A DNA stretch of 64,000 nt from Acidobacteriota bacterium (GTDB taxonomy: Bacteria > Acidobacteriota > CAIWXX01), in NCBI GenBank assembly GCA_040755995.1, contig JBFMAF010000043.1, forward strand, positions 32,001-96,000, given 5' to 3'. The notes below the pieces were generated by a model. The model saw only the letters and a program-made list of their open reading frames with translations. It did no database searches and was not told the DNA's origin. This document shows, one piece after another, positions 32,912 through 43,657 of this stretch. Position 1 is the first letter of the stretch, and every line of letters starts with the position of its first letter. Both the position numbers and the translations under genes were made by a program.

Positions 32912-33154
32912 CTACTTGGTGCGCTTGATCCTTGCCCTGTGTGCTTGGAAATTAGCCGCTGCCCACTGTTCATCAAGGCGGTTCATATCCTGCATCGATC
33001 GATGCTTGTAAACGCCCGGGGGGAAAGCCGGAGAAGTCCACCGATCGCCGAGATCCCACAACCCGGCAATCGCGCGGTATAGAGCCGGATCGCCTGGGTC
33101 GCGCCATCGCGCCGGCATGTCCTCGACTCGTCTGAATTTCCTAACAGGCATCAC
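32912..33154 (-). CDS. Small hypothetical protein, partner of the nucleotidyltransferase
   Basis: 80 aa, overlaps the upstream stop codon; internally repeated (K)FR.VE.M / KHRSMQDM motif. Confidence 0.6.
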   Translation of the reverse strand: MMPVRKFRRVEDMPARWRDPGDPALYRAIAGLWDLGDRWTSPAFPPGVYKHRSMQDMNRLDEQWAAANFQAHRARIKRTK

Positions 33155-33791
33155 TCCTCCAGGTTGAAACGTCTACGCAGAGCTTCCGCGTCCGCGCGAT
33201 CCTGCAGACGCACAGTGTCCTTCTTCATGCGATAGAGCGTCTTCGGCGTGACCACTGAGACCACGATGTCTTCGAACGGCAACCTCTCGCTCTCCAGGTC
33301 CTCGAAGCGGAACGCCTCTCCGAGCCGCGTGAGGATGTCGATGTGGAAGGTGCCCTCGGGGGGGACATACTCGACGGCTGGATAGTCTCCAAGCAGGTCC
33401 TCCGCCGTGATCTGCTCTATGTTCGGATCGTCGTACACGGAGCGGAGTGCTGCCTTTAGATGCTCGATGTTGTCGGGCTGAGGGGCGACGAATATGTCCA
33501 GATCGTCGGTGAAGCGAGTGAGGCCATGCAGATTGATTGCCGCACCCCCGAAGACACTCTAGCGAGGCTGCGCCTCAGACCCACGAGGCATGTCACGGTT
33601 GGAGCGGCGCAGCCTCGCGTCGAGAGTCGAGAGTCGAAGGTCGAAAGTGAAAACGGTGGGAATTGACGGCCAATGACGCACCGCTCCAAGAATTTGACTC
33701 AATCGCAACACGTTTTTCGCCTCAAGCCATTCTAGTGGACCTGCTCTCGCTCCAGCGCCGCTAGCACTCTCTTCGTTGTTTCGAAGTTCAC
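33151..33791 (-). pseudogene. Nucleotidyltransferase-fold gene split by an inserted repeat element
   Basis: 33791-33735 reads MNFETTKRVLAALEREQVH. After the insert, 33558 downward reads SVFGGAAINLHGLTRFTDDLDIF...RLQDRADA (GG..T.D.D NTase motif). Confidence 0.85.
33559..33735 (+). mobile_element. Non-autonomous REP/MITE-like element, copy 1
   Basis: CTAG at both ends, CGAGGC-N3-GCCTC hairpin pair, AGAGTCG heptamers and a TGACGCACCGCTCCAAG...CCTCAAGCCATT tail. It interrupts a CDS. Confidence 0.8.
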
Positions 33792-33963: not shown

Positions 33964-34488
33964 TCAGCCGCTCGATGTCGATTCCACTATGAGCGCGTCG
34001 AGTCTCTCAACCAGCTCGGCCACGGATCTCGCCACCGGCTCGCTCAAGCCCTTACCCCAGGTTAGCGGGAGAGTGACGGTAATCCCGAAGGTCTCCCATG
34101 GGGGAAATGGTTCCGCGATTCGTGTCGCCTGCAGCCGATGCATGACGGAGGCGATGTCGGTCTGGTGGAGCGATGGAGCCAGCGGGTGGGGAGAACGTGA
34201 GAGTGGGCGGATGTCGCCGGGGGTGCCCTCAAGCGTCGCATCTACAAAAATGAAGCGCTCGGCGCGCTCGAGCAGATCTGCGATCTCGAAGAGATCGGTC
34301 TCGAGTGCGTATAGAAAGACGCGGTTGTCGTCCCGCCAGCGCTCGCTCAGACGCCGCACGACTTCGATGCCGGCCGCATCGTCGCCTGCGAGCTCGTTGC
34401 CGATACCGATGACGGCGACCTTCGCCTTCTGGTCGCCGCACCGGAGCGATTCCGAGTGCTGCATGCGACGCTCAGAGCCCGCGCCCAT
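33964..34488 (-). CDS. Hydrogenase maturation protease
   Basis: VIGIGNELAGDDAAG, IFVDA, SLH. Confidence 0.9.
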   Translation of the reverse strand: MGAGSERRMQHSESLRCGDQKAKVAVIGIGNELAGDDAAGIEVVRRLSERWRDDNRVFLYALETDLFEIADLLERAERFIFVDATLEGTPGDIRPLSRSPHPLAPSLHQTDIASVMHRLQATRIAEPFPPWETFGITVTLPLTWGKGLSEPVARSVAELVERLDALIVESTSSG

Positions 34489-34576
34489 CAGAGACCGCTC
34501 ACCGCGCAGAGCGGCGCCTCCTGAAAACGGAACGCGGATTTCGGATCCGAAATGGTGAATACGGGATTCGAGGCTC

Positions 34577-35299
34577 CTACTGATAGATCTTCACGTCGTA
34601 GACGCACCGCTCAGCGCCGCGATCGGCTTTCGTGAGCCGCAAGCGCGTCTTGCTGGTGCTGCCGAGATAGCCCGTGAGGTAGTTGCAGAAGAGCACGCAG
34701 AGCTCGCCGCCCAGCTCGATCCCCTCCTTCTTGCACAGTTCTCTGACGAAGCAGTCCTTGATCTCGAAAAGCAGCTGTTCGCCGCTAGGCATCGAGGGCT
34801 CCATGCACCAGGCCGGCCCGAACTGCTCCTTCGCCAGCGCAAGCGCCTCGCCCATCGTCTTCGGGACGCGGTAGCGCGGCAGCTGGTTGGCGAGAGTGCG
34901 TCCGGCGATCGATCCCACGGCTGGAAGCCCCGATCCGAGCGTCTGCTTGAAGACGGAGGCGATGGATAGCAACCGGACGCCCAGGTCGCTCATCGCGTGC
35001 TCACGGATCTCCCTGTCGGCCGGCACGTTGGCGATGGGTTTGCCGTTGGTGAGCAGCTTCGAGGCCAGGGCCATGGCATACGGGTCATGGTGGAAAGCCG
35101 CCGAGAGGGTCACGCCGTCGTGGTGTATGGCAGTCGCGGGACAGATCTCGGAGCAGCTCAGGCACCCGAAGCACTCCTTCGGTTTCACCACCACCGGCTG
35201 GCTCTTGACTTCGTCAAATACGAAGACCTTGGTCGGGCATATGTCGGCGCAAAGCGCGCACCCGACACAGGCTTTGTCGTCGATGGCGATCGTGATCAT
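34577..35299 (-). CDS. 2x[4Fe-4S] ferredoxin fused to a C-terminal V4R-like domain
   Basis: CVGCALCADICP and CFGCLSCSEICP. The C-terminus has DCFVRELC..LC..GYL..RCVY, a V4R-like Cys pattern (by eye). Confidence 0.75.
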   Translation of the reverse strand: MITIAIDDKACVGCALCADICPTKVFVFDEVKSQPVVVKPKECFGCLSCSEICPATAIHHDGVTLSAAFHHDPYAMALASKLLTNGKPIANVPADREIREHAMSDLGVRLLSIASVFKQTLGSGLPAVGSIAGRTLANQLPRYRVPKTMGEALALAKEQFGPAWCMEPSMPSGEQLLFEIKDCFVRELCKKEGIELGGELCVLFCNYLTGYLGSTSKTRLRLTKADRGAERCVYDVKIYQ

Positions 35300-36702
35300 C
35301 GCTCCATCCCCTTTCTGATCGTGCGGACGAGCTCTCCGTCCCTGCGTATCTGCACCTCCATCGGCATCTGCCCCGCCGCGTGAGTGGCGCAGGCCAGACA
35401 GGGGTCAAAGCAGCGCATCGCGAACTCTATGCCGTTCATCAGCAGGTTGTCGTTCTTCTTGGGCATCAGCAACTTCGCAAGCGAACCTATGGAGTTGTCA
35501 ATGGCGTCGTAGTTGTTTTGGGTGGCGACAATCAGGTTCGCATCCGTCAGGCGCCCATCGGCATCAGCCGTGTAGTCGTGCACAAGGATGCCTCGCGGCG
35601 CCTCTACCAGGCCGATGTACCTGCCCTCCCTGGGCTCCACCGGCACCCGAATCGGACCTCCTGTCAGGGCACCACCTGCAATCTCCGCGACTCGCTCTGC
35701 GGCGTGGACCATCTCCACCAGCCTCGCTTCGACGTAGTCGAGCGCCGACAGGCGAGGCCGGCCCTTCGCCTGGAACTCCTTCAGCATCTGGTTTGCCTTG
35801 GGAGTCGAGATCGCGTAGTTGTTGTTGAGTCGCGCCAGCGCTCCCACGAAGTATCGCTTCTCCGGCGTGCCTCGCAGCCTCACCGACTTCATGTAGGACC
35901 CGCGCATGACGTGCTCGACCAGATGCTCGTAGTACTTGGCGATAGGGAAGACCCGCTCGCGGATACCGAGCGCGTCAGTGACCACCACATCGCCTTCCAG
36001 GAAACTGTGGACGCCGTTCTTGGAGAGAGAGAGCGAATGGTAGGGAAGGAGCAAGGTTTCGGTGATCTCGTCCATGAGCGCCAGGCGGGCGCGTGCGACC
36101 GGGCCAAGCTCATCCAGGAGGCCCATGGCTTCCGTGCCCCAGCCGGCGATCATCTTGAGCTTCTCGGCGTCAGGACGGGCCGCCATGCCCCCGGGCACTG
36201 CGGTGACCGGATGGACCCCGCGGCCGCCGACGATCTCGACGATTCGCTGCCCGATCGTTCTGAGTCGCAGCGCCTTCTTGGCAAGCTCGGGGGCCAGCTT
36301 CAGGAGGCCGAATACATTGCGCACGTCAGGCTCGCTGTCCAGACCGAGCAGCAGATCCGGCCCCAGCAGGACGAAGGTGCTGAGCCCGTGAGAATGCAGC
36401 ATGTGGCCCGCGTACAACAGGTCGCGGAGGAGCCTTGCATCGGTCGGAACGGCGATGCCGAGCCCGTTCTCAATTGCGGTCACGGACGCCAGGTGGTGTG
36501 CGGCCGGACAGACCCCGCACAGCCGCCCGGTGACTTGCGGCATCTTGAATAGCTCCATTCTCTCCAGCAGCTTCTCGAAACCGCGGATCTCCAGTACCTG
36601 CAGGTGCGCGTCCGTAACCTGGTCGCCGCCATCTACATCGACCACTATTCTCGCGTGGCCCTCGATTCGAGTGACCGGATCAACGATTACTCTTTGTGCC
36701 AT
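35296..36702 (-). CDS. Group 3 [NiFe]-hydrogenase large subunit (MvhA-like)
   Basis: TRIEGH, RGFE, L1 RLCGVC, EAPRG, L2 DPCLACATH plus a cleavable C-terminal extension. Confidence 0.93.
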   Translation of the reverse strand: MAQRVIVDPVTRIEGHARIVVDVDGGDQVTDAHLQVLEIRGFEKLLERMELFKMPQVTGRLCGVCPAAHHLASVTAIENGLGIAVPTDARLLRDLLYAGHMLHSHGLSTFVLLGPDLLLGLDSEPDVRNVFGLLKLAPELAKKALRLRTIGQRIVEIVGGRGVHPVTAVPGGMAARPDAEKLKMIAGWGTEAMGLLDELGPVARARLALMDEITETLLLPYHSLSLSKNGVHSFLEGDVVVTDALGIRERVFPIAKYYEHLVEHVMRGSYMKSVRLRGTPEKRYFVGALARLNNNYAISTPKANQMLKEFQAKGRPRLSALDYVEARLVEMVHAAERVAEIAGGALTGGPIRVPVEPREGRYIGLVEAPRGILVHDYTADADGRLTDANLIVATQNNYDAIDNSIGSLAKLLMPKKNDNLLMNGIEFAMRCFDPCLACATHAAGQMPMEVQIRRDGELVRTIRKGMER

Positions 36703-36706
36703 GGTT

Positions 36707-37651
36707 TCACCTCTGTGCAGAGGCGGGCCCGGACCCCGCCGGCTCGCCGGCCCACTCTCTCAGCTCGACCGTGGGCTTCTTGTACATCACCGGCGAAGCC
36801 ACCGCGTACGCGTAGAACGTCTTCGCGTCTCTCTCGATGTACTCGCGCACCTCCGCCTCGGCGATTCCGCAGAGCATGCTCATCCGCCTGGCCAGCATGG
36901 TGCGCATGTCCAGATGCGGTTCTGTCACTATGCTCAGCGATGGACCGCAGCAGCCCGTGCAGGCTATGCCCACGGCCGGGCATGGAGCCTGGCATCGATT
37001 CAATGACACCGACCCCATGCACACTACCCCTTGGCTGAGGAAGCACATGCTGGGGTCTAGCGCCGTGACGGCGCCCCGCTTGAGCGAGACGCCGGAGACC
37101 TTGCGCATCTGCCGGGTGCATTCGGCGCAAACGGTCTGGTCGCTGAGCGGCGGTCCCGAGGCACCGAGCAATGCCCTGAGTCCTGCGGCGATGAAGTAGG
37201 GGTGCGGTGGGCAGCCGGGCAGGTAGAAGTCCACCGGAACGACCTCATCGATCGGTACGACGCTCTCCTCGAGTACCGGAGCCGAGGCGTCGGGACGCTC
37301 ACCACCCGCGTTGGTCGGTCCGCTGCCGTAGACCTTCTCTATGACTTCGGCCTTGCCATGCAGCCATCCCAGTCCGGACGGGCCGCCGTAAACAGCGCAG
37401 CTGCCGAATGCAACCAGCGTCTTCACGCTCTTGCGCATCTCCAGGAGGGCATGGCGGTCGTGCTCGCTTCGAATCGCTCCTTCCACGATCCCGATATCCG
37501 CATCCGGGTAATGCTTCTCATCCATCAAGACAGTGGCGCGTACGAAGTCCACATCCTCGACGAGCCCGAGCAGCTTCTCGTGCAAGTCCACCACTGCGAC
37601 GTGGCAGCCCGAGCAGCCGCTGAGCCACTCTGTGGAAAGTCGAGCCTTCAT
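36707..37651 (-). CDS. Group 3 [NiFe]-hydrogenase small subunit (MvhG-like, three-cluster type, no Tat signal)
   Basis: GCSGC, GSCA, PGCPP, and a C-terminal CAEC..C..C..C..CP..CTGC; ATGA overlap with the upstream gene. Confidence 0.92.
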   Translation of the reverse strand: MKARLSTEWLSGCSGCHVAVVDLHEKLLGLVEDVDFVRATVLMDEKHYPDADIGIVEGAIRSEHDRHALLEMRKSVKTLVAFGSCAVYGGPSGLGWLHGKAEVIEKVYGSGPTNAGGERPDASAPVLEESVVPIDEVVPVDFYLPGCPPHPYFIAAGLRALLGASGPPLSDQTVCAECTRQMRKVSGVSLKRGAVTALDPSMCFLSQGVVCMGSVSLNRCQAPCPAVGIACTGCCGPSLSIVTEPHLDMRTMLARRMSMLCGIAEAEVREYIERDAKTFYAYAVASPVMYKKPTVELREWAGEPAGSGPASAQR

Positions 37652-38136
37652 TTCTTCTCCTCCCAGATGAGCTCCTTTATGCACGCGTTCGCGCCTGCGT
37701 GGGTGATCTCCAGGTGGCAGATCGTGTTCGGCATGACCTTCTCCATCGCGCCTGCGAACACACCGTGTGACATGTAACAGAGCGACAGCTTCTGGTCGTG
37801 AGCGTAGCGATTGAGCGCATTGCGCACCATGCAGGTGCGGAAGACGAGCCGGAGCTTGTACTTGTCACCTTCTCGCTCGACCGGATCGGCTCTCTCGCCC
37901 GAGAATGGTTCGAACTCCCAAAATATCCCGCGTCTTGTCAAGGCTTCCTGCAGTATGCCCACGGCCTTGATCGGGTCGCTGGTCTGATCGACCCCTGCAA
38001 CCGCCTCCATGCCGAACTTCTTGCCGGCAAGGTTACAGATCGAGAGGCTCCCCTTGCCGAGGTTCTTCTCGGCTCCGTGCGCCAGCGCGCCTACGAAGTA
38101 CGCAACTTCCTGAAATTTCGCAATGTCGTGGTCCAT
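37648..38136 (-). CDS. Stand-alone V4R-like protein
   Basis: AGKKFG helix, CMVR..LC..GVFAG..AC pattern, similar to the C-terminal domain of 34577..35299; AAGGAG RBS. Confidence 0.65.
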   Translation of the reverse strand: MDHDIAKFQEVAYFVGALAHGAEKNLGKGSLSICNLAGKKFGMEAVAGVDQTSDPIKAVGILQEALTRRGIFWEFEPFSGERADPVEREGDKYKLRLVFRTCMVRNALNRYAHDQKLSLCYMSHGVFAGAMEKVMPNTICHLEITHAGANACIKELIWEEKK

Positions 38137-38293
38137 GTTCACTCCTTTGCGAATGTCATTGCATGCCGGGTCTCCATCGGCCATGGCGTTTCAGAAAGGG
38201 ATGGATCCCATCGTCTTGCCCCCTTCATGCTATCTAATCCGGCATCTCGCCCGGCTGCCGCCCGAAGTGCTCGTGCCGTCTCGGTCGGCTCCC

Positions 38294-39370
38294 TCAGCCG
38301 CCCCTGATGATCCTCTCAATGCTCTTCTTCATGAGGGCTGGGTTCTGTTCACCAGACACTAGTATGAGGAAGCAGCCCAGCGAGCCCGCTGGGAAGATGA
38401 CGTAGAAACCCTCTTCGCCCTCGCCGAGATAGGAGATGAGCTCCCCGAGCCGCCACCGCTTACCGAGGATATCGAGCTTGCTCCGGACTTGGCCCCACAA
38501 TCGCGTGCAGGATTCGTTCGGCGTCGGTTGCCCCTGCACTGCCACCAGGGCGCTGTCGGCACCATCCCTCGTTACGAAGGCGCTGGCGAGGACCCCATGC
38601 AACGTCGCTATTTCTCGGACTGCTTCTTGGACTACGGCGGGAACCTTCAGAGGTGCTGCCGGAGTGGCCGGCTCCTCTTCAACGAAGCCCACACCCTGCA
38701 CAGCCGTGGGACCTGGTTCGGCGGCGGACTCAGTGGTTGGCAAGACGAGCTCCGGAGGCTCGAAATCCAGCTCTACGAACAGGCTCAGAGGATCTTCTTC
38801 CTCCAGCGGCAACTGTGCACCCGGTGTCTGCGCCGCCCCATCAATCCTCTCGGCCTCCACAGGCACTTCGGGCAGTGGCATGCCAGCGGCCAGTGCGCCT
38901 GCCGGAGCCGTATCCTCCCGCAGAGCCTGCGGGGCAGCGGCGGCCGGAGTGCGAGTCCCGGCACCCGCCTCTTCCCCCGCGCGGTCGGCCGGCGTCGTGG
39001 AGGCGATTCGATCTCTTGCGCGCTGAACCAACGTCTCGCGAAACAGGTTCGTGAACTCGCGGGAGCGTATCGCGAGCAGCCGGTCCTTCTCGTGCTCATC
39101 CAGGGGATGGTCCAGCGGGTAGCTCTTGCGCAAGAGAATCTTCCCTTCCCATGCAGCCACCGCAACGATGCGCGGGTCCGGCTTGGGCGAGTATTCCACC
39201 TGTATCTGGATGAGCCGCCGCCCTATGGTTACAGACTGCAGAAGACCGCCGACTGTGGCAGCCTTGGGTCCTACCCTGGGCGAGCCCGTGCTGGTCATCG
39301 GTTGAGCCGGGGTGGAGCGCGCAGCCGGAGTGCCACCTGGGCGGCTGGAGTCTTGCCCCTTCGGTACCAC
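38294..39370 (-). CDS. Hypothetical protein with low-complexity linker and C-terminal Roadblock/LC7-like domain
   Basis: C-terminal GVLASAFVTRDG...LGEL...GEEG pattern; Pro/Ala/Glu-rich centre. Confidence 0.6.
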   Translation of the reverse strand: MVPKGQDSSRPGGTPAARSTPAQPMTSTGSPRVGPKAATVGGLLQSVTIGRRLIQIQVEYSPKPDPRIVAVAAWEGKILLRKSYPLDHPLDEHEKDRLLAIRSREFTNLFRETLVQRARDRIASTTPADRAGEEAGAGTRTPAAAAPQALREDTAPAGALAAGMPLPEVPVEAERIDGAAQTPGAQLPLEEEDPLSLFVELDFEPPELVLPTTESAAEPGPTAVQGVGFVEEEPATPAAPLKVPAVVQEAVREIATLHGVLASAFVTRDGADSALVAVQGQPTPNESCTRLWGQVRSKLDILGKRWRLGELISYLGEGEEGFYVIFPAGSLGCFLILVSGEQNPALMKKSIERIIRGG

Positions 39371-39383
39371 GACTTTGAACGCC

Positions 39384-39516
39384 CTAGCGAGGCGCGGCCT
39401 CGGAGCGGCTGGCTATGGATTCGGAAATGAGTACGCAGACCAATCGGCTATCTCGATGACGCACCGCTCCAAAGCTCCGACTCGTTGCCAACATCTTTCG
39501 GCTCGAACCCTTCTAG
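39384..39516 (+). mobile_element. Non-autonomous REP/MITE-like element, copy 2
   Basis: CTAGCGAGGCGCGGCCTCG...TGACGCACCGCTCCAA...TTCTAG. The right-hand CTAG overlaps the roadblock stop codon. Confidence 0.75.
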
Positions 39517-39866
39517 AGCGATTTCTCGAGGTCCTTGATGTGTTTCTTGACTTGATAGCGGACGTTGCCGAGGTTGGCGCTGGCACTGGTCACGATCGCC
39601 AGGATAGCATCCTGGCCCAGGGCCGCGCTTACGAGGACGCCGTTATCGAACTCGGCCATGACCTGTCCCATCTTTCCGATCTTGAGCTCCTGGCCCATGG
39701 TCTCGGAAGAGCCAAAGCCTGTGGAAATGACGGCTCCGACCGCCTCTACGTCCATGCCAGCCCCACCGGCTGCATCGATCACGAACCCGTCGCGGCCTAC
39801 CACGACCGCACTGGCAATCCCTTCGACCTTGACCAGACTGTTCAGGACTTCGCGGGTACTAGGCAT
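39513..39866 (-). CDS. Roadblock/LC7 (MglB-like) protein
   Basis: EGIASAVVVGRDGFVID, ANLGNVR; GGAGG precedes ATG 39866. Confidence 0.9.
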   Translation of the reverse strand: MPSTREVLNSLVKVEGIASAVVVGRDGFVIDAAGGAGMDVEAVGAVISTGFGSSETMGQELKIGKMGQVMAEFDNGVLVSAALGQDAILAIVTSASANLGNVRYQVKKHIKDLEKSL

Positions 39867-39955
39867 CGCTACCTCCTTTGGAAAATCATCAGGCTCGTGC
39901 ATTCCCCCTTGCTTCTGCTTCGTGAGTTCAAACCCCCGCTTCACGGCCGTGTTCT

Positions 39956-40167
39956 ATACAGCGCGTCATAAGTCCACAACAGACTCAACGAGTAGACGCA
40001 GTGCATGACGCGCTGTATTCGCGGGGATGGCCTCAGGCCTTGCATCTGCGGCCATTCGGCCGCGCAAGGCCTGAGCCCTCCCCACGTACCCCCCCGGGGG
40101 AGGCCTCCGAGCGAGGCCTCCCCCGGAACCCCCACGCGCATACAGCGCGACTTGTGTCGCGCTGCAT
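39956..40167. repeat. Cluster of three inverted repeats/hairpins
   Basis: ATACAGCGCGTCAT / ATGACGCGCTGTAT (39956-39969 and 40005-40018); a 14-bp stem at 40094-40126; ATACAGCGCGAC-ttgt-GTCGCGCTGCAT at 40140-40167. Confidence 0.75.
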
Positions 40168-40389
40168 AGTCAGTTGGTTGACTCGTGTCCAAACGACCCT
40201 CAGGAACAGCGTCCTGCCACTCTCTCATGTCTGAACCTGTAGCCCTCCATTCCATACTCCGGTGGGGGCACATCATAAGACGAAAAACCCATCAACGTCA
40301 TCTATGATAATAGTAACCCGGCCGAAGAGCAACCCGTTGGAGGGACTTCTTCTGCGTCCGCATGGTCCCTCACAGATGCGCCACCGGCA

Positions 40390-41076
40390 TCAGGACTCCG
40401 ACTCCGTGAGCTGCGAGGCCAGCTTGTTTACCGCGAGCGTGACGGCGCCGAGCGTCCGGCCTGCATCCGTGACGGCCAGCAGCACGCGATGCTCATCCAG
40501 TCTCTGCGCGACCACGAATCCCGACTCGTCCTCACAGTAGAGACGTTTGAATGCACGGCGGGGGTAGCTCCGTATCACCCCTGGTATCAACCGTCGGAGC
40601 TCCTCGATGCCCTCCGGCTTGCCCCCAGTCTGCGCCAGAACCACGCCGTCTGGATTCATTACCGCCAGATGGGAGAGTACGCCGCCCAGCTTGACCCATT
40701 CGTCCAACTTCATCGTCAGGTTGCCTCCGCCTCTCCGGATCTCCTCCTGCCTCTTCTGTTCCGCCAGCTTTCGTTCGTCACGGGCCTTCAACGCCAGCAT
40801 GATGAGGCGATGCAAGTCCGTGTCGATCGTTCTTGCGGGCGAGGCAACATCCTGCCTTATCTCGAATGTACCATCCTCCCAGTCTACAACGGTCATCAAG
40901 ACCTCTTCGCCGTACCTGTCGCCCTGGATGGCATGGACCAATCTTCCGTGATCGTAGTGAAGCGACGCCTCGGCCTCGCCGCTCCGCATCACCACCTGGC
41001 AGGTCTTCCTGCCGTTGTACGGGAACTGCAGGAGCTCTACGATGCCGAATTCCTTCAACGATCCTTGCAGCGTCAT
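40390..41076 (-). CDS. DUF4388 (PATAN-like) domain plus C-terminal Roadblock-like domain
   Basis: LQGSLKEFGIVELLQ..GRLVHA..WEDGTFE..ARDE; C-terminal AVMNPDGVVLA..TLGAV. Confidence 0.8.
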   Translation of the reverse strand: MTLQGSLKEFGIVELLQFPYNGRKTCQVVMRSGEAEASLHYDHGRLVHAIQGDRYGEEVLMTVVDWEDGTFEIRQDVASPARTIDTDLHRLIMLALKARDERKLAEQKRQEEIRRGGGNLTMKLDEWVKLGGVLSHLAVMNPDGVVLAQTGGKPEGIEELRRLIPGVIRSYPRRAFKRLYCEDESGFVVAQRLDEHRVLLAVTDAGRTLGAVTLAVNKLASQLTESES

Positions 41077-41090
41077 CGGCTGTCCCTCCC

Positions 41091-41246
41091 TTAGCGAGGC
41101 GCGGCCTCCGTCGAATGAAGCTTGCAAGGCCGCTCTGGCCGCGCCTCGCTTAGAGAGTAGAGAGTGGAGAGTAGAGAGTGGCAGTGACGCACCGCTCCAA
41201 GAAATCGGCTCAGTCCCAACATGTTTTTCGCCTCAAGCCATTCCAG
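41091..41246 (+). mobile_element. Non-autonomous REP/MITE-like element, copy 3
   Basis: TTAGCGAGGCGCGGCC...GGCCGCGCCTCGC, AGAGTAG/AGAGTGG heptamers and a TGACGCACCGCTCCAAG...CCTCAAGCCATTCCAG tail. Confidence 0.75.
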
Positions 41247-42546: not shown

Positions 42547-42713
42547 CTATCGCGGCGTCGAGCGGGCGACGACATGCCGTTGGCGTATGATGGGCAGCGT
42601 CCGGTGGCAGACCGCGTCACTCCCACTCTCTACTCTCCACTCTCTACTCTCTACGCCAGGCGCGGCCGCCTCGGCCTGGTACGGTTCTTCCGGCCGAGGC
42701 CGCGCCTCGCTAA
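42547..42713 (-). mobile_element. Non-autonomous REP/MITE-like element, copy 4 (inverted, divergent tail)
   Basis: The reverse strand reads TTAGCGAGGCGCGGCCTCG..AGAGTAG/AGAGTGG..GTGACGC. It starts in the arcC TAG stop, with a second TAG at 42547-42549. Confidence 0.65.
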
Positions 42714-43657
42714 GCGTGGACCCTGGTGCCTTCCCTGCCATCCAGCGCCTGAATGATGTTCTCCGCATTCGTGATGATTGCGGTGCCACCGGTGCCTTCG
42801 GCGAATTCGATCGCCGCCTCGACCTTGGGCCCCATGGACCCGGCAGGGAAGTGCCCTTCGAGCAAGTACCTCTTCGCTTCCCGGACGGAGATGTCGTACA
42901 GGTCCCGCTGGTTCGGCTTCTCGAAATTGATCGACACGCGCGGAACACCCGTCAGCAGGAAGAAGTGCGATGCCTTGATGCCGATCGCAATGAGAAACGA
43001 GGTGCGATCCTTGTCGATCACGGCGTTCACGAGCTCGAATGTGTTGTCCGGTCTGCGAACCACGGGAATGCCTCCGCCCCCTCCTGCGATCACCACATTG
43101 GCGGTCTTGAAGGCGTCCGGGATGATTGCGTTCGCGAAGACTTTCACGGGCGCAGGCGACGGCACCACACGTCGGTAACCCCGTCCTGCATCCTCGATGA
43201 TCGTCCAGTCCGGAAACCGCTTCCTCACCTCATCGGCCTCCTCGCGCGTGTAGAACGGCCCGACCGGCTTCGTCGGATTCCCGAAGGCCGGGTCATCCCC
43301 CCTGACCTCCACCTGCGACACGATCGTCAGAACCTCGAAGTCACGCTTCTCCCGGTTGACGGTGTTGATGATCGCGAGCTCCAGCATCGTACCGATCTCG
43401 GCCTGCGTCAGCGCATCGCACACGGCCAAGTCCAGCGGCGGGATGTTCTCTTTCAGCCCGGCAAGCTGCCTCAGATAGGCCAATCCAACCTGCGGGCCGT
43501 TGCCGTGAACCACGACCACGTTGAAATCGCGGATCACAAGGTGCTTCACCAGCTGGGCCGCCTGGTAGGCCTTGCCCATCTGCTCCTCCATCGAGCTCCG
43601 CCCGTCGGATAGAGCGTTCCCACCAATGGCGACAACCGCTATGTTCTGAGCACTCAC
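42710..43657 (-). CDS. arcC: Carbamate kinase
   Basis: AIGGNAL, HGNGPQVG, GGGGIPV, VIDKD, GSMGPK; GTG start at 43657 after GGAGG. Confidence 0.93.
   Translation of the reverse strand: MSAQNIAVVAIGGNALSDGRSSMEEQMGKAYQAAQLVKHLVIRDFNVVVVHGNGPQVGLAYLRQLAGLKENIPPLDLAVCDALTQAEIGTMLELAIINTVNREKRDFEVLTIVSQVEVRGDDPAFGNPTKPVGPFYTREEADEVRKRFPDWTIIEDAGRGYRRVVPSPAPVKVFANAIIPDAFKTANVVIAGGGGGIPVVRRPDNTFELVNAVIDKDRTSFLIAIGIKASHFFLLTGVPRVSINFEKPNQRDLYDISVREAKRYLLEGHFPAGSMGPKVEAAIEFAEGTGGTAIITNAENIIQALDGREGTRVHA

Follow-up and report, generated by a model that had tools for sequence, protein, structure and literature searches.

A [NiFe]-hydrogenase of group 3 lineage encoded with V4R proteins beside a Roadblock/DUF4388 cluster in an Acidobacteriota bacterium: a candidate H2/redox-sensing system

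In the HydDB classification (PMC5037454) the sensory classes are [NiFe] groups 2b and 2c and [FeFe] group C only, with none in group 3 and none linked to a GTPase. Group 2b is histidine kinase-linked, 2c diguanylate cyclase-linked (putative), and [FeFe] group C comprises C1-C3, with C2 linked to methyl-accepting chemotaxis proteins (MCPs; putative), while group 3c is the heterodisulfide reductase-linked class (PMC5037454). Positions 33964-41076 of a 64,000-nucleotide stretch of Acidobacteriota contig JBFMAF010000043.1 (assembly GCA_040755995.1, positions 32,001-96,000; the whole stretch is here called the window) encode a [NiFe]-hydrogenase of group 3 lineage together with two V4R proteins and a set of Roadblock and DUF4388 proteins. 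Its sequence and gene neighbourhood make it probable that this hydrogenase informs the motility controls of the cell about hydrogen or redox state.

The closest described system is the Mvh cluster of Geobacter sulfurreducens (GSU2416-2423), published in the order CheW, hypothetical protein, small subunit, large subunit, ferredoxin, hypothetical protein, protease and MCP, with the gene names mvhQ, mvhR, mvhS, mvhL, mvhF, mvhU, mvhP and mvhV (PMC7894505). MvhR and MvhU are listed there as hypothetical proteins, the Geobacter Mvh enzyme is treated as not involved in H2 uptake, and in the available text MvhV alone among the Mvh proteins is named as detected, in figure legends (PMC7894505, PMC8691401). 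A paper on Geobacter chemotaxis genomics (PMC2577667) makes no mention of hydrogenase, mvh, V4R or GSU24, and PMC2825233 makes none of 'mvh'. V4R is a ligand-binding regulatory domain (PMC2253512) whose homology to Bet3, ligand binding and Zn sites are established (PMC2253512, PMC10933270). The Geobacter-type cluster is already published; among titles and abstract openings we found no description of a hydrogenase-V4R-Roadblock/MglA cluster, and this branch seems undescribed in the literature surveyed.

The locus consists of eight open reading frames (ORFs), all on the minus strand and in the order that an initial annotation of the window had given, with a repeat between the first two:

40390..41076, minus strand: DUF4388 (PATAN-like) protein with a C-terminal Roadblock domain, 228 residues, putative adaptor (PF14332, E 1.9e-16)
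39954..40168, no strand: 215-bp multi-copy palindromic repeat (blastn copies, four hairpins)
39513..39866, minus strand: stand-alone Roadblock/LC7 protein, 117 residues (PF03259, E 3.4e-13)
38294..39370, minus strand: unnamed small N-terminal domain, Pro/Ala/Glu-rich linker and divergent Roadblock tail (predicted structure; no Pfam match)
37648..38136, minus strand: V4R-A, stand-alone protein of predicted V4R/Bet3 fold, 162 residues (model fold match)
36707..37651, minus strand: S, [NiFe]-hydrogenase small subunit, MvhG-type, 314 residues (5odc_E, E 3e-63)
35296..36702, minus strand: L, [NiFe]-hydrogenase large subunit, 468 residues (5odc_F, 286 bits; 7t2r_D, 282 bits)
34577..35299, minus strand: Fd-V4R, 2x[4Fe-4S] ferredoxin (about residues 1-63) fused to a predicted V4R/Bet3 domain, V4R-B (about 98-240) (Pfam and model fold match)
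33964..34488, minus strand: hydrogenase maturation protease (TIGR00072, 79.3 bits, cut-off 47.45)

Pfam/NCBIfam scans name the DUF4388, Roadblock, small subunit, large subunit, ferredoxin and maturation protease, and miss both V4R domains of the window as well as two Roadblock domains (the DUF4388 C-terminus and the 38294-39370 tail). The central four genes overlap or nearly abut, as annotated, through ATGA overlaps at the V4R-A/S (37651-37648) and L/Fd-V4R (35299-35296) junctions and a 4 bp spacing from S to L, and the likelier starts are 39866 for the Roadblock gene, 38136 for V4R-A and 37651 for S. The three upstream genes are more loosely set, with spacings of 523, 143-215 and 157 bp from the DUF4388 gene to V4R-A. 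The shared orientation of the eight genes carries little weight, because the minus strand also holds their neighbours on either side, between about 27.6 and 47.8 kb of the window. A scan for promoters and terminators returned about what chance would give (three promoter-like and four terminator-like sites against 1.3 and 4.4 expected), with neither kind of site in the 38137-38293 gap. A look-up of sequencing runs listed none over 34500-39900.

The neighbourhoods of homologous hydrogenases were surveyed within 7 kb of L with profiles built for this analysis (L, G and C numbers are our handles for loci, genomes and contigs). The lineage keeps the core order V4R–S–L–ferredoxin/V4R–protease and divides into two branches with different signalling genes. 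Branch A comprises 49 loci, of which 32 with at least 1.7 kb upstream were assessable and 17 shorter ones were set aside; V4R-A is present in 32/32, Roadblock in 30/32, DUF4388 in 17/32 and MglA in 8/32 (26/27, 17/27 and 8/27 for the last three where at least 5 kb lies upstream), and neither CheW nor MCP occurs within 7 kb in the window cluster or the 49 loci. One of the two Roadblock misses, L047, is a contig that ends inside a DUF4388-Roadblock homologue; the other is L100. In branch B together with the basal locus L123 (17 loci) V4R-A is found in all, MCP in 16, CheW in nine and Roadblock in one (L123). The 50 control neighbourhoods (40 regions around top L matches in 301 Acidobacteriota genomes, six paralogues of the host, L009 and three plasmids) hold MvhD in 20 and HoxU in 34, and Roadblock, DUF4388, MglA, MCP, CheW and V4R in none. 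The association of homologous operons with signalling genes, whose absence the initial annotation had named as refuting its reading, is borne out.

Most of these loci were fetched with V4R queries. Some came from metagenomes scanned with the Fd-V4R alignment, where the best 80 of the 149 loci were kept, and others are 20 regions drawn from the 55 V4R-A carriers among 201 genomes of the order of G301 (Geobacterales); the presence of V4R-B in the metagenome loci and of V4R-A in branch B follows from this selection. Queries based on L agree with them: a genome scan with L gave nine loci, eight of which (60-65% identity) show the cassette up to the point where the contig ends and have Roadblock in 8/8, the ninth being an MvhD-S-L operon; and the seven of 301 Acidobacteriota genomes with V4R-A are the same seven that give the best L matches. 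The Roadblock linkage spans at least two phyla despite rearrangement.

The genes recurring around branch A, named by Pfam, are REC-DUF4388, REC-DUF4388-Roadblock, MglB-type Roadblock, DnaA-like AAA+, ParA/MinD, GGDEF, cNMP and further V4R proteins, and those around branch B are CheW and HAMP_2-MCPsignal proteins. The branch-B MCP gene follows the protease gene in 20/20 fetched regions (as two ORFs in L156). The eight of these MCPs that were checked have no membrane helix (maximal 19-residue hydropathy 1.1-1.4) and no domains besides HAMP_2 and MCPsignal, as soluble, sensorless receptors would.

Three observations on these loci stand by themselves. The DnaA-like AAA+ gene (PF00308) recurs within an MglB-MglA-DUF4388 block in L060, L069, L047, L082, L084, L088 and L094 (upstream of V4R-A). 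At L098, L102, L103, L106 and L108 the large subunit is reduced to its 3' part, which is followed by Fd-V4R and the protease and preceded by unrelated genes, as in decayed cassettes or misassemblies. A Geobacter metagenome-assembled genome, G303, carries both the Roadblock branch (L005) and the CheW/MCP branch (L170).

The order published for GSU2416-2423 is that of branch B, which bears out the statement in the initial annotation that an orphan Geobacter Mvh-type operon lies beside chemotaxis genes. Window and Geobacter cluster share the V4R-S-L-Fd-V4R-protease core order, V4R-A being the positional counterpart of MvhR. Branch-B loci of that order match V4R profiles at the positions of both hypothetical proteins, a comparison made on those loci and not on the GSU proteins themselves, and their large subunits are 43-48% identical to window L. 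The two differ in that the window has a fused ferredoxin and second V4R, which in the MCP branch are split into two genes (counterparts of MvhF and MvhU), and in that the Geobacter cluster is flanked by CheW and MCP whereas the window cluster is flanked by Roadblock/DUF4388 proteins, with MglB/MglA in relatives.

The large subunit belongs to a lineage of its own. A quick maximum-likelihood (ML) tree was built from the large subunits whose alignment covered 400 residues or more (shorter fragments left out), 125 in all and 116 after nine with 95% identity or above to another were dropped. The V4R-associated large subunits form one clade (66 rows, SH-aLRT 97), separate from an MvhD-linked clade (20 rows, 100) into which the host genome's own MvhD-linked paralogues fall and from a Hox clade (26 rows, 99); the deep nodes do not resolve the order among the three. 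A second quick tree, of 35 full-length unannotated library representatives (of 150 listed) and 41 of our own rows, keeps the V4R-associated clade (24 rows, SH-aLRT 99). The lineage is best called distinct within the 3c/3d radiation, on trees without a named archaeal MvhA.

The small subunit is closer to a known type. In the PDB S has a clear best match in MvhG (5odc_E), and it carries 12 conserved cysteines in common with MvhD-linked enzymes, eight of them in the C-terminal cluster domain expected of group 3c and present in 20/20 MvhD-linked and 0/26 Hox small subunits; with 314 residues and this extra domain it is not of the short HoxY type. It ends in a lineage-specific tail, K-P-T...W, in which K, P and W are invariant in 54/54 sequences and which is absent from the controls. 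The best families are Oxidored_q6/VhuG for S and NiFeSe_Hases/VhuA for L, with VhuA at 288 bits, below the cut-off of 800. MvhA (5odc_F) and 7t2r_D match L nearly level, at 286 and 282 bits. The 7t2r large subunit is one we take to be Hox-type. 'MvhAG-like', the wording of the initial annotation, is fair for the small subunit, while the large one forms a lineage apart from the MvhD-linked enzymes.

Both subunits thus have their top matches in MvhAGD-HdrABC (PDB 5ODC), and the window hydrogenase differs from that complex in its separation from the bacterial MvhD-linked clade and in its partners, which are V4R and ferredoxin proteins: MvhD, the companion of group 3c, and HoxF and HoxU, those of group 3d, were found within 7 kb of L in 0/66 V4R-lineage loci, and no MvhD, HdrA-type or diaphorase marker lies beside the window hydrogenase, as had been annotated. 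The distinction drawn earlier from the group 2b and 2c sensors also stands, since the best matches are all group 3 and the window cluster has no histidine kinase or diguanylate cyclase gene (kinase or GGDEF genes flank a few relatives). The locus resembles the sensory hydrogenases (2b, 2c and [FeFe] C) in its apparent coupling of a hydrogenase to a signalling module, and differs from them in its group 3 lineage, its proposed V4R/ferredoxin transducer and its proposed Roadblock/small-GTPase output. We lean towards the view that it works like a sensory hydrogenase; it is a member of neither 2b nor 2c. Among the MvhD-linked controls, HoxF/HoxU-like (NuoF/NuoG-type) genes precede the MvhD-S-L operon in 8/20 (L186, L195, L197, L200, L203, L208, L210 and C26:164355 of the host genome).

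By its motifs the window hydrogenase looks fully catalytic. L carries the L1 motif RLCGVCPAAH, which includes a Val, the L2 motif RCFDPCLACATH and a cleavable C-terminal extension, and retains C62, C65, C435, C438, E14, R370 and H441; the four ligand cysteines and R370 are kept in 49/49 branch-A large subunits. The protease gene comes after Fd-V4R in homologous loci; its start is uncertain, homologues aligning from about residue 20. The L2 Cys motif RC[FY]DPC occurs in 66/66 V4R-lineage large subunits and 1/46 others, and it was dropped as a lineage marker because representatives outside the clade (P0249, P0250, P0252 and P0271) carry the same motif. Three group 3 large subunits, those of L123 (G275), L195 (G233) and L210 (G279), have an in-frame TGA at the second L1 Cys, a possible selenocysteine at L1, not at the usual L2 position, and an unusual ligand site.

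Both V4R calls of the initial annotation are confirmed by fold comparison of models built from alignments of 108 (V4R-A) and 60 (Fd-V4R) homologues. The V4R-A model (pLDDT 93) matches the V4R domain of PoxR at Z 11.8 (root-mean-square deviation (rmsd) 3.7, 139 aligned residues), BcsD at Z 11.6 and Bet3-TPC6B at Z 11.5, while the top places all go to members of the V4R/Bet3 superfamily, whose fold is a helical layer over a four-stranded antiparallel sheet, and no unrelated fold reaches Z 6; the modelled C-terminal half of Fd-V4R matches the TRAPP core at Z 11.7 (rmsd 2.8, 134 aligned) and the V4R protein MJ1460 at Z 11.3. At the level of sequence the signal is faint: PF02830 is touched weakly by 11 of the 108 V4R-A family members, a PDB search with the V4R-A profile gave nothing below E 0.7, and hhalign of V4R-A against Fd-V4R is weak (probability 3.8%). 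The two domains are nonetheless paralogues, judging by cross-hits within the sister branch (E 1e-5 to 5e-10) and the shared predicted fold. Invariant residues are C102, C120, C152 and H113 in V4R-A and C183, C189, C201 and C232 in the V4R domain of Fd-V4R. A complex prediction of V4R-A, V4R-B (85-240) and one Roadblock chain, run without control complexes, scored 0.12 against a mark of 0.32 and counts neither way.

On the side of the putative output, the DUF4388 domain spans residues 4-103 of the 40390-41076 protein, and the annotated Roadblock at its C-terminus is upheld by hhalign against the cassette Roadblock profile (95.4%, E 1.9e-8). The stand-alone Roadblock lies within the reading frame 39513-39944, in which Robl_LC7 was found and whose ATG at 39866 sits behind an AAGGAGG site. 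It is 43-60% identical to 29 cassette homologues. Together these proteins make up a single conserved subfamily, with 21 columns invariant across the 30 sequences, and at the same place in L007 the Roadblock is fused to REC-DUF4388. The subfamily is found at E<1e-35 in 8/301 Acidobacteriota genomes, five times adjoining the hydrogenase and three times without the cassette.

MglB is the GTPase-activating protein (GAP) of MglA, and the two form the polarity module of Myxococcus xanthus. The nine MglA proteins encoded with related cassettes keep the P-loop, R53 and Q82, an MglB-type gene directly preceding MglA in most of them, so that Roadblock proteins and an MglA-type GTPase recur as in M. xanthus. 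The window differs in that its Roadblock lies far below the cut-off of the MglB family NF052242 (22 bits against 200), has no mglA gene beside it and is at most a putative GAP. In 5/5 tested branch-A genomes without MglA in cis, MglA is encoded elsewhere in the genome. V4R and Roadblock genes also pair outside the cassette: at L232 (G255:C13, 5406-9659), where no hydrogenase is present, a DUF4388-Roadblock gene is followed by a V4R-like gene, a second one of similar size and a ParA-like gene.

The third annotated Roadblock protein fares less well. The tail of the 38294-39370 ORF (358 residues; start at 39370 GTG or 39298 ATG) matches Roadblock clusters in predicted structure (TM 0.80), but its profile signal is weak (probability 4%, E 0.01). 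As a lead only, its N-terminal domain resembles unnamed Acidobacteriota/Myxococcota clusters (score 0.85). Among 80 relatives a homologue was found in G029 alone and in none of the cassette loci, and by this distribution the gene is a family-specific accessory outside the conserved system. The 215-bp repeat between the DUF4388 and Roadblock genes is not part of the conserved system either: it has 70 matches in the genome, near-full copies at 89-94% identity lying on at least six other contigs among the matches listed, and folds into its four hairpins at z -11.

The host genome (7.7 Mb, 99.8% complete) contains roughly ten further [NiFe] large subunits (from 18 Pfam match segments), nine MvhD matches, 17 DUF4388 matches, four MCPs, five PilT above cut-off and no match to flagellin. 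HypF, HypD and HypE (on C52) and HypB (on C24) were found by tblastn; HypA was not, with a single query. There are five MglA-type GTPases, including one recR-mglB-mglA operon, with an mglBA pair on C23. Besides these canonical MglA proteins, G000 encodes four long MglA-domain fusions of 333-730 residues (C8:239800, C27:65676, C39:34301 and C3:2498), one adjoining a DUF4388 gene and one among response regulators, and at C32:3553-4869 a divergent group 3-like large subunit with a very long branch and none of the tested partner markers. Across 25 cassette-bearing genomes MvhD is found somewhere in 18 and gives no match in seven, three of which are 92-99% complete, so that MvhD in trans is not obligatory.

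A conserved core joined to two unrelated output systems points to signalling, and since the core has exchanged outputs, one of them a sensorless receptor, a sensor is the simplest reading. On balance, then, we favour, with some reserve, a cytoplasmic [NiFe]-hydrogenase whose main role would be to sense H2 or redox state, with the V4R pair feeding a Roadblock/MglA switch. In the mechanism we propose, the Ni-Fe site would oxidize H2 (or reduce protons) and electrons would equilibrate through the Fe-S chain of S with the ferredoxin domain, as family knowledge suggests; the redox state of that domain may alter how a V4R-A/V4R-B dimer is shaped or binds. This pair would be an exchangeable output socket. 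In branch A it would act on the Roadblock and DUF4388-Roadblock proteins, which would serve as adaptor or GAP for an MglA-type GTPase, encoded in cis in 8/32 loci and in trans in the window host, with type IV pilus polarity as the likely output; in branch B it would act on a soluble chemoreceptor that itself lacks a sensor domain. By passing electrons on to the cell pool the ferredoxin would also reset the sensor, and the signal may therefore be the H2/ferredoxin redox balance and not H2 alone. The sensor interpretation of the initial annotation is supported in its linkage to signalling genes and in its V4R folds, and loses the Roadblock-tailed gene.

Several observations weigh against this reading. 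With its protease, its C-terminal extension and the Val in L1 the enzyme looks fully catalytic, which sets it apart from the group 2b sensors, and the fused ferredoxin could serve plain metabolism. The window cluster has no MglA, and among the five MglA proteins of the host, which are 45-51% identical to a cassette MglA, none is a conspicuous candidate for its partner. The L100 cassette has no Roadblock in 8.6 kb upstream, and within the window the strong multi-copy hairpin repeat parts the DUF4388 gene from the remaining cluster. G029, a genome of the same family (98% complete), has the Roadblock (70% identical) and, adjacent to it, the Roadblock-tailed gene (33% over 330 residues) among unrelated genes, with no cassette found, and G013 and G046 have the Roadblock subfamily beside a ParA-like gene, again without the cassette, so that a genome may hold the Roadblock module and not the hydrogenase. 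The Roadblock pair thus stands independently, and may be a hub fed by the hydrogenase or a neighbour with no relation to it. As to the survey, kin among the loci are not independent, the control regions were taken from the top of the match list and not at random, and the Roadblock profile finds the three Pfam Roadblocks of the genome and misses the two divergent domains of the window.

The alternative that survives best, and which we regard as possible though doubtful, is a hydrogenase that serves metabolism, evolving or taking up H2 through the fused ferredoxin, and that is the target of signalling and not its source, tuned by a V4R ligand and positioned or switched by Roadblock/MglA or the MCP. 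The complete catalytic apparatus with its dedicated protease, the hyp genes adjoining the cassette in L088, L089 and L116 and the ligand-binding regulatory nature of V4R (PMC2253512) are all consistent with it, and a role in H2 production has been suggested for Geobacter Mvh (PMC7894505), a further point against a sensor. A chemoreceptor is, however, an input device, and the sensorless MCP of branch B fits a flow of information from the hydrogenase; carriers such as the host hold many other hydrogenases, and the recurring neighbours include no consistent metabolic enzyme.

Decidedly unlikely in our estimate is a five-gene hydrogenase cassette that acts alone, its Roadblock/DUF4388 neighbours sharing history or regulation with it and no interaction. 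The Roadblock genes that occur without the cassette in G029, G013 and G046, the 143-523 bp gaps and the repeat between the upstream genes, the varying orientation and spacing of the Roadblock gene (divergent in L005, L080 and L110) and the abundance of DUF4388 in the host would all suit such neighbours, but the linkage in 30 of the 32 assessable loci against none of the controls, the single conserved Roadblock subfamily and the fusion in L007 argue for a functional tie. Weakest of all, and most improbable, is a group 3c enzyme of the ordinary kind, with accessory V4R genes, that bifurcates electrons by recruiting an MvhD/HdrABC from other loci of the genome: the MvhA and MvhG matches and the MvhD genes of the host and most carriers would allow it, and the carriers without an MvhD match, the separate clade of the host's MvhD-linked paralogues and the lineage-specific tail of S speak against it.

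A bolder form of the sensor reading, which we rate as unlikely, takes the V4R pair and Roadblocks as a TRAPP-like platform, gated by the hydrogenase through the fused ferredoxin, that controls whether a bacterial Ras-like GTPase is in its GTP- or GDP-bound state; this would give small-GTPase polarity a direct H2/redox input and group 3 a distinct sensory subgroup whose other branch leads to chemotaxis. The TRAPP core, in which Bet3/V4R subunits and longin subunits act on a Rab GTPase, and the Asgard TRAPPC3 share with the locus the predicted Bet3/V4R fold, a paralogous pair and an encoding together with Roadblock folds and a Ras-like GTPase, a likeness that is one of fold analogy, with BcsD, PoxR and H-NOX scoring as well or nearly so.

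Beyond the system itself, multi-copy palindromic intergenic repeats occur at 33558-33738, 39954-40168, 41085-41240 and 42614-42719 of the window, with about 70 blastn matches each for three of the four gaps (up to 99% identical), and are like miniature inverted-repeat transposable elements (MITEs) or repetitive extragenic palindromic (REP) sequences. The first borders, on the upstream side, an AbiEii-like nucleotidyltransferase fragment without a start (33151-33552, PF08843, E 1e-6), as if the repeat had gone into that gene.

If a group 3 lineage signals, it would form a new sensory class beyond [NiFe] group 2 and [FeFe] group C, and a metabolic role would have been wrongly read into those enzymes of anaerobic Acidobacteriota and Geobacterales that are classed as heterodisulfide-linked in metagenomes. 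The orphan Mvh cluster of Geobacter, for which a genetic model exists, would gain a function, and MglA-type GTPases outside the myxobacteria an environmental input. Bacterial V4R/Bet3, Roadblock and small-GTPase genes standing together amount to the parts list of the eukaryotic TRAPP complex.

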